This document shows, piece by piece, positions 28,954 through 30,141 of a stretch of 64,000 bases of DNA. The stretch is from Clostridia bacterium (GTDB lineage Bacteria; Bacillota; Clostridia; TANB77; CAG-508): positions 39,091-103,090 of the forward strand of contig JAFWDV010000018.1 of NCBI GenBank assembly GCA_017515985.1, written 5' to 3'. Both the position numbers and the translations under genes were made by a program. Below the pieces are notes generated by a model that ran no database searches, had not been told where the DNA came from, and saw only the letters and a list, made by a program, of their open reading frames with translations. Position 1 is the first letter of the stretch. Each line of letters begins with the position of its first letter.

Positions 28954-30141
28954 ATGAATGAAAAGGTAACTGTAGGCAAGGAGTTCGAGTTGCTTAAGAA
29001 GCGGTTCTCTGATGCTAGAGAGTGTGGATACTACTCCATCAGAGAAAGAAAGCTTCTGAGAAACTCTATCATGGCAGTTGACTACGTGAAGTCTTTTTTT
29101 GAAGGAACGAGTCATTTGCCACCGCTCGAAGAATCGGCATCCACATCGTGGGGTAAGACTTTTAATAACCTTTGGAGAGCATTCAGCTACATCGAAGAAG
29201 CTGAAAGATTGCTTGATGGGGCGCATTTATATTATGATATTAAGAAGAGAGGTTTTTTCGTGGAAGACAAGATAATAAGTTTTTTAGCATTTGATGGAAA
29301 AGTAAATATAAAATGTATAAATTCAACAAAGTTAGTTGAGGAGGCAAGAAAGATTCATGATTTAAGTCCAGTGACTACTGCTGCACTGGGTAGATTGTTG
29401 ACTATGGGAAGTCTTATGGGAAGTAATTTGAAAGAAAAGAATGATAAGATTACTCTACAGATCAAGGCAGATGGACCAATAGATACGATGATTGCTGTAG
29501 CTTCAAATGATGGTAATGTTAAAGGTTATATAAAAAATCCAAATATTGACATACCTTTGAAATCTAATGGAAAACTTGATGTTGGTGGTGCTGTTGGAAA
29601 AAATGGGATGCTTTATATAATAAAAGATATTGGATTGAAAGAGCCATATGTTGGATTAACTCCATTGGTTTCTGGTGAAATTGCAGAAGATTTTACAGAA
29701 TATTTCGCTAAATCTGAGCAAGTACCAACAGCAATTGCGCTTGGCGTTTTGGTTGATAAAGATGGTGTAAGAAGTGCAGGTGGATATATTGTTCAATTGA
29801 TGCCAGATGCTACTAACGAAGATATAACGATACTAGAGCAAAATTTAAGAGCTATGCCACCAATAAGTAAATTATTGGAAGAGAATAAGAGCCTAGAAGA
29901 TATTGCTGGTATGATTACAGGTGATGGAATGTTATTTATGGTAGGTGAAGATTTATTACCAGAATATAAATGCGATTGCCAAAAGTCTAGAATTAAAAAT
30001 GGATTAATCTCGCTTGGAGCAAAAGAAATACAAAATATAATTGATACAGACGGAAAAGCAGAAGTGGTTTGTAAGTTTTGTAAGAAAAAGTATGAGTTTT
30101 CAAAGGAAGACTTGGAAAAAATAAAAGAAGAGTGTAAATAG
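28954..30141 (+). CDS. hslO: Hsp33 redox-regulated chaperone (core about 29260-30141) carrying an in-frame ~100-aa GC-richer N-terminal extension
   Basis: Core matches Hsp33 (KIHDLSPVTTAALGRLL...; C-terminal CDC...CKFC zinc centre). The upstream 300 nt is GC-richer and has its own RBS GAAAGGAAG and ATG, but no stop before the hslO RBS/GTG. Confidence 0.7.
   Translation: MNEKVTVGKEFELLKKRFSDARECGYYSIRERKLLRNSIMAVDYVKSFFEGTSHLPPLEESASTSWGKTFNNLWRAFSYIEEAERLLDGAHLYYDIKKRGFFVEDKIISFLAFDGKVNIKCINSTKLVEEARKIHDLSPVTTAALGRLLTMGSLMGSNLKEKNDKITLQIKADGPIDTMIAVASNDGNVKGYIKNPNIDIPLKSNGKLDVGGAVGKNGMLYIIKDIGLKEPYVGLTPLVSGEIAEDFTEYFAKSEQVPTAIALGVLVDKDGVRSAGGYIVQLMPDATNEDITILEQNLRAMPPISKLLEENKSLEDIAGMITGDGMLFMVGEDLLPEYKCDCQKSRIKNGLISLGAKEIQNIIDTDGKAEVVCKFCKKKYEFSKEDLEKIKEECK

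Follow-up and report, generated by a model that had tools for sequence, protein, structure and literature searches.

Within the 64,000-nt window of Clostridia bacterium DNA analysed here (contig JAFWDV010000018.1), hslO, the gene for the chaperone Hsp33, lies on the forward strand at positions 29260-30141 (293 codons) and starts with GTG. Reading-frame analysis indicates that the frame containing hslO is free of stop codons from 28867 to 30141 and, as the initial annotation had claimed, runs open from an ATG at 28954 through the GTG at 29260. This ATG is located 7 nt downstream of its own ribosome-binding site, GAAAGGAAG (28938-28946), also correctly recognized at that stage, and translation from it gives a fused product of 395 aa. 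The GTG follows GAGAGG (29247-29252) by 7 nt, one less than initially counted. Residues 105-383 of the 395-aa product cover the whole HSP33 profile of Pfam (PF01430, positions 1-273 of 273) with a score of 320.6 bits against a cut-off of 21.4 (E = 1e-95), and the Hsp33 part is 53-95% identical to its orthologues. Its C-terminal part carries two cysteine pairs, CDC (YKCDCQKS) and CKFC (VVCKFCKKKY), i.e. the zinc-binding CxC ... CxxC cysteines of the redox switch, which are conserved among orthologues.

The first 102 aa match no family in Pfam. Codons 1-88 (28954-29217, forward strand) are assigned by tblastn, phmmer, AlphaFold2 and conserved columns to the retained N-terminal three-helix domain of a small-protein family, and codons 89-102 (29218-29259, forward strand) to what would be a former intercistronic spacer, composed of a GGGGCG sequence, an AT-rich run and the hslO ribosome-binding site AGAGAGG (29246-29252). 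AlphaFold2 models the retained segment as a three-helix bundle with a pLDDT of 83 (helices at residues 7-23, 29-50 and 65-98), the structure models being of low confidence from residue 89 onward. In the model of the whole chimera, the Hsp33 part has a pLDDT <50 because the alignment was restricted to relatives of at least 90% identity. An antisense ORF at 28903-29226 was considered as a gene and rejected: it gives only chance-level Pfam hits, and the conservation sits in the sense frame.

The left edge of the transcription unit is marked by the intrinsic terminator of the upstream repeat-protein gene, found by a terminator scan at 28789-28816 on the forward strand (8-bp stem, 4-nt loop, T run). 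A promoter scan and the conservation of the hexamers then place the operon promoter at 28848-28876 (TTGATT, 17 nt, TG-n-TAAAAT; forward strand), followed by a conserved leader of ~75 nt (28877-28953) with a hairpin, GAGGC-TGGT-GTCTC (28890-28903), and the ribosome-binding site of the ATG. Immediately after hslO, a long near-perfect hairpin (GGGACGGAGCAAAAAAA...TTTTTTTGCTCCGTCCC; 30145-30201, forward strand) is, from its sequence, likely to be a bidirectional intrinsic terminator; it gives spurious matches below gathering score to miRNA and plastid 3'UTR families of Rfam.

Upstream, an inserted block of ~5.7 kb (23133-28830) separates dtd from the promoter of the hslO operon. It contains a 148-aa ORF (23195-23641) that belongs to no confident Pfam family, and a helicase/repeat gene. 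The latter comprises a 1374-aa ORF with a ResIII/DEAD helicase core (aa 606-766) and the next ORF, of 306 aa, spanning 23685-28767 together; the two appear to be parts of a single gene that a frameshift near 27795-27810 has interrupted. The interruption falls inside a tandem array (27215-28621) of 4.8 copies of a 291-nt (97-aa) repeat, and it recurs in the independent contig L021. The block is of host-like composition (GC3 ~0.2), and PADLOC detects in it only generic helicase-core similarity (HamB, Cas3, type IV restriction). It is absent from the related loci L001, L002, L013 and L033, where dtd is separated by 50-820 nt from hslO or from a small gene preceding it.

We then compared the window with orthologous hslO loci, which are conserved in context, adjoining dtd, rpsB and tsf. 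A scan of one genome per species yielded 20 hslO loci, 19 of them intact enough for a test of the start. In all 19, the protein begins M-[EQS]-D-[KR]-I at the position of the window GTG, and an in-frame stop codon lies 9-78 nt upstream, so that the alignment of orthologues proposed in the initial annotation confirms the GTG as the canonical start. Among the genes read at the DNA level, this position is ATG in every intact orthologue (22/22), and GTG occurs only in the window lineage. Within the 90%-identity protein cluster, five of the seven members are 293-294 aa long and start with MEDKII; the remaining members are the protein of the window and MBR2744849.1, from an NCBI metagenome-assembled genome (MAG). 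Orthologues carrying the same 102-residue N-terminal extension were looked for, as the initial annotation had suggested, and none was found among those examined outside the window lineage. The first of its two readings, a genuine novel N-terminal domain of Hsp33, is thus not supported as a feature of the family by these sequences. Because orthologues lack the extension, we judge the fusion to be lineage-specific.

To what does the extension belong? A tblastn comparison with the related loci matches the 102 aa to same-strand ORFs directly upstream of hslO, at best with 44% identity (E = 5e-21). Five related genomes harbor such a full-length small gene directly 5' of hslO and on its strand, at a distance of 55-245 nt. 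In L013 it encodes 212 aa (5295-5933), and in L005 it forms a tandem pair of 191 and 201 aa (4405-4980 and 5150-5755), the N-terminal domains of the two copies being nearly identical (dS 0.04) and their acidic tails different. L024, one locus found through JGI metagenomes, has the order dtd, small gene, hslO; in L027, the small gene and hslO are followed by aspartate kinase and asd, a differing downstream context. L035, whose Hsp33 is 93% identical to that of the window, has a small gene like P0004 (a family member, see below) and then hslO. L033 has no small gene before hslO, and its Hsp33 is 95% identical to the window's. Overall, about half of the close relatives have the small gene and the others lack it. 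Weak tblastn hits 5' of hslO in L010 and L020 were rejected as family members, as they fall inside an unrelated glycosyltransferase-rubredoxin gene; the weak hits in L012 and L015 have the same coordinates.

Word-indexed protein searches are nearly blind to this family (0, 3 and 3 hits), and an exhaustive HMMER search (phmmer) of 1.84 billion representative proteins was therefore needed. It retrieved ten relatives (P0001-P0010), all of 131-197 aa, with E-values from 2e-20 to 9e-4. In all ten, the match region corresponds to residues ~5-92 of the query and is N-terminal, and none of these representatives is fused to Hsp33. In the distant members P0007-P0009, hslO is not adjacent. The family has no relatives in Pfam, NCBIfam, PHROGs or PADLOC beyond scattered single-member chance hits; the PADLOC defence models give no hit for either the 102-aa segment or the full-length L013 protein, no relatives were found on viral contigs, a PDB sequence search with the family profile gives no match at E ≤ 1, and the predicted three-helix domain has no specific fold match.

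Residues 5-90 of the extension align at 26-56% identity with family members. Tyr44, Leu55, Pro56, Leu58, Trp66 and Ala83 are invariant in the family and Gly51, Glu60 and Gly67 nearly so, and the family motif Y-[VI]-[KR]-x-F-F-x-G ... L-P-x-L-x-E ... W-G, located within the ~90-aa N-terminal domain, is present in the window copy. The window domain differs at one of the 17 columns that are otherwise invariant, as do intact members, and thus displays no decay. With a dN/dS of 0.13-0.29 across the N-terminal domain, together with the AlphaFold2 pLDDT of 83, the family is a real protein-coding one. Full-length members (131-212 aa) consist of this domain, a variable and mostly acidic tail, and a short hydrophobic C-terminal tip (...LEYGLGM, ...GLSM), and they end with their own stop codon. 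The window copy resembles the small genes of L013 and L005 in its position directly 5' of hslO, behind the same promoter and the same leader, but lacks the tail of 40-120 residues, the hydrophobic tip and the stop codon. It does not qualify as a stand-alone gene, since its homology ends at about residue 88-92 and no stop precedes hslO. Between strains whose Hsp33 proteins are 84-95% identical, alleles of the small gene are only 44-53% identical. The family is fast-evolving, previously undescribed, and linked to hslO in several uncultured gut Clostridia.

The segment had initially been called compositionally foreign. Its G+C content is indeed high, 0.434 over 28954-29220 as compared to a mean of 0.32 (sd 0.048) for the whole window, a value reached by 2.2% of 267-nt windows, and the difference extends to synonymous sites, with a GC3 of 0.48 in the segment and 0.21 in the window hslO. 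The same holds across genomes: the small gene has a G+C content of 0.39-0.475 and a GC3 of 0.31-0.48, whereas hslO has 0.30-0.33 and 0.15-0.21, respectively. Because in every genome the small gene exceeds its host in G+C content, we take the foreign appearance to be a trait of the family and not the mark of a recent insertion into the window genome. Other patches among the top 2% of 267-nt windows lie at 6207-6656 (reverse strand) and 40382-41059 (forward strand), over small ORFs to which no function is assigned, of 149 aa and of 225 aa with apparent membrane helices, respectively. The compositional pattern of these G+C-rich patches over small ORFs is the same as that of the small gene 5' of hslO.

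The promoter and the leader are conserved in the six small-gene copies aligned, including that of the window, and both promoter hexamers precede the small gene in register in L013, L024 and L027 and in each of the two L005 copies. In L033, the same -35 element precedes a hairpin and then hslO, without the small gene; L001 and L002 have a promoter, GAAAGGAAG and hslO, the small gene being absent. Since the promoter is present in every arrangement, it would serve hslO throughout, and the window hslO is presumably still transcribed from it. From these arrangements, hslO in this clade often appears to follow another gene in a two-gene operon, the first gene being patchily present, and we regard the small gene as accessory, easily lost and expendable because L033, L001 and L002 have hslO without it. 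The leader (28877-28953 in the window, 5224-5312 in L013, 640-730 in L024, 4362-4455 and 5107-5200 in L005, 88-175 in L027) has a consensus fold of nine pairs, two of them with compensatory changes, and may be a regulatory element of the small-gene/hslO operon. Compensatory changes are seen in its 5-bp hairpin (GAGAC/GUCUC versus AUGGA/UCCAU), and a stretch GGUAcAU...CAAuaAAcc is conserved besides. No Rfam family matches the leader. A hammerhead ribozyme, for which the leader string CUGAUGAG ... CGAAA was considered, was rejected, as the core layout is missing and Rfam gives no hit.

The arrangement in relatives also indicates what the window has lost. In L013, L024, L027 and L035, a G+C-rich hairpin, of the form GCCCCTCT-loop-AGAGGGGC or closely similar, comes after the stop codon of the small gene, and next in order are an AT-rich spacer, AAGAGG and the hslO ATG. 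In the window, homology to the family ends at about codon 88 (...AERLLD), and the junction reads ...CTTGAT|GGGGCG, then an AT-rich run, AGAGAGG, TTTTTTC and GTG. What remains is thus the domain, the hairpin's 3' arm, the spacer and the ribosome-binding site of hslO. The tail, the stop codon and the rest of the hairpin (5' arm and loop) are missing, which points to a deletion that removed those parts. A single deletion of ~150-400 nt would explain the window arrangement, the length being given as a range because the tail varies in length across the family. The deletion junction would lie at about 29215-29230, with endpoints placed to within ~15 nt. As for the intercistronic hairpin, it may serve in attenuation, processing or stability, and is perhaps not a full terminator because a clear T run is absent after the stem. 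This hairpin, whose window remnant is at 29218-29223, is kept in L033 despite there being no small gene at that locus.

Altogether, we propose that the N-terminal half of an hslO-linked small gene was fused in frame to hslO by a deletion in one strain lineage, to which we assign a probability of roughly 85%. The ancestor would have carried a two-gene operon, the small gene and then hslO, separated by a stop codon, the hairpin, the spacer and a ribosome-binding site. One deletion of the size given above would have taken the tail-coding half of the small gene, stop codon included, together with the hairpin's loop and 5' arm. As the remaining 42-nt spacer has no stop in the hslO frame, the truncated small gene would read straight into hslO. 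Transcription would start from the operon promoter, and initiation at ATG 28954 would yield the 395-aa chimera, made of the three-helix domain, a 14-residue linker and Hsp33. Because the ribosome-binding site preceding GTG 29260 survives, Hsp33 of native size may be produced as well. The second initial reading, a small inserted gene that had lost its stop codon and terminator, is therefore right as regards the lost stop and the lost 5' arm of the hairpin but not as regards an insertion peculiar to this genome: the "inserted" gene would be the first gene of the operon, patchy in the clade.

Could the open frame instead be produced by sequencing or assembly, through a miscounted T6 run (29253-29258) or a chimeric join? 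The frame does hinge on the length of this run, just 5' of the GTG, and the source is a metagenome-type assembly. Nevertheless, the identical 395-aa protein is encoded on eight contigs of the ENA and Logan assemblies, from different samples, and the sequence of MBR2744849.1 is the same, although its annotation starts at an internal Met and gives 356 aa. The contig L021 has a single difference from the window in 17,188 nt and L022 has none in 1,796 nt, and both are identical to it across 28801-29300. The recurrence of the exact allele on eight contigs and in an NCBI MAG thus argues against an assembly error, an explanation that we consider largely refuted and very improbable. Even less credible is that the G+C-rich 300 nt are a structured non-coding RNA or a leader element and not coding sequence. 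The segment is locally G+C-rich in an AT-rich genome and is preceded by a conserved leader with a small hairpin, but an Rfam E-value scan of 27500-31000 gives no match within 28800-29262 at E ≤ 1, and a gathering-score scan of the whole window returns a single tRNA, outside the segment. The fold z-score is only -1.6, and the protein homology (E = 2e-20), the dN/dS and the pLDDT given above largely refute an RNA.

A more serious alternative, which we still hold to be unlikely, is that the fusion functions as a chaperone with two domains: the three-helix protein would normally work with Hsp33, their linkage would be tolerated or favoured, and translation would yield mainly the chimera, as in a "Rosetta stone" fusion. 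In favour of this, the small gene and hslO have a promoter in common and are close neighbours in the five genomes, one of which, L027, has differing downstream genes; the deletion spared the whole conserved domain and removed only the variable tail; conserved columns of the domain show no excess change; and the hslO start is GTG in the window, whereas it is ATG in all relatives. On the other hand, the sequences from which the allele is known are all nearly identical, the close relatives L033, L001 and L002 do entirely without the small gene, and the distant members mentioned above are not beside hslO. The AlphaFold2 model of the chimera, with its low-confidence Hsp33 part, gives no support on the packing of the domains. 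Note that the L013 spacer is also stop-free in the same frame from the 3' arm to the ATG; as this frame is open by default, any in-frame deletion yields a fusion, and since about one-third of random deletions would do so, no selection need be invoked. We doubt that the three-helix protein is a dedicated, co-transcribed partner or regulator of Hsp33 and that the 395-aa chimera is an active chaperone with its partner tethered in cis. Two observations do not discriminate. The undecayed domain fits a very recent deletion and a functional fusion equally well, and the change from ATG to GTG, by which the upstream start could have taken over, is compatible with either the chimera or native-size Hsp33 as the important product. 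Because both compared contigs are near-clonal with the window, the data suggest that the fusion is recent, and these two contigs give no sign of its retention through appreciable divergence. Fusion by deletion, the reading that we prefer, would probably be neutral or mildly harmful rather than an adaptive gain of a domain.

The product of the window thus shares with Hsp33 (HslO) orthologues the full HSP33 match, the CDC and CKFC pairs and the conserved locus, and differs by the 102-residue extension and the GTG start. In E. coli, hslR and hslO form a heat-shock operon (Hsp15-Hsp33) in which the small gene is immediately upstream and co-transcribed, Hsp15 being an S4-domain RNA-binding protein. 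The window clade is similar in layout only, with a small gene 5' of hslO: its small protein has no Pfam match, S4 included, and its predicted fold is a three-helix bundle. The initial annotation held both of its readings to be unusual; in-frame fusion by deletion is however an ordinary kind of event, here an adjacent-gene fusion on a well-known chaperone. As in gene fusions in general, two co-oriented neighbours were joined with loss of the 3' end and stop of the first gene and of part of the spacer; the kind of event is the same, and what is unusual is that the upstream partner belongs to a family not described before and that the fused ORF still contains the second gene's ribosome-binding site.

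For annotation, the 395-aa "HslO" (356 aa in NCBI) is to be read as a recent chimera rather than as a new architecture of Hsp33. Of more use is a by-product of the analysis, an undescribed small-protein family that shares its promoter and leader with hslO. If it is true that the small protein works with Hsp33, the natural fusion would be a ready-made test construct; if it is not a partner, the locus would offer a snapshot of the stepwise loss of an accessory gene, which is intact in some strains, truncated and fused in the window lineage, and gone in others.
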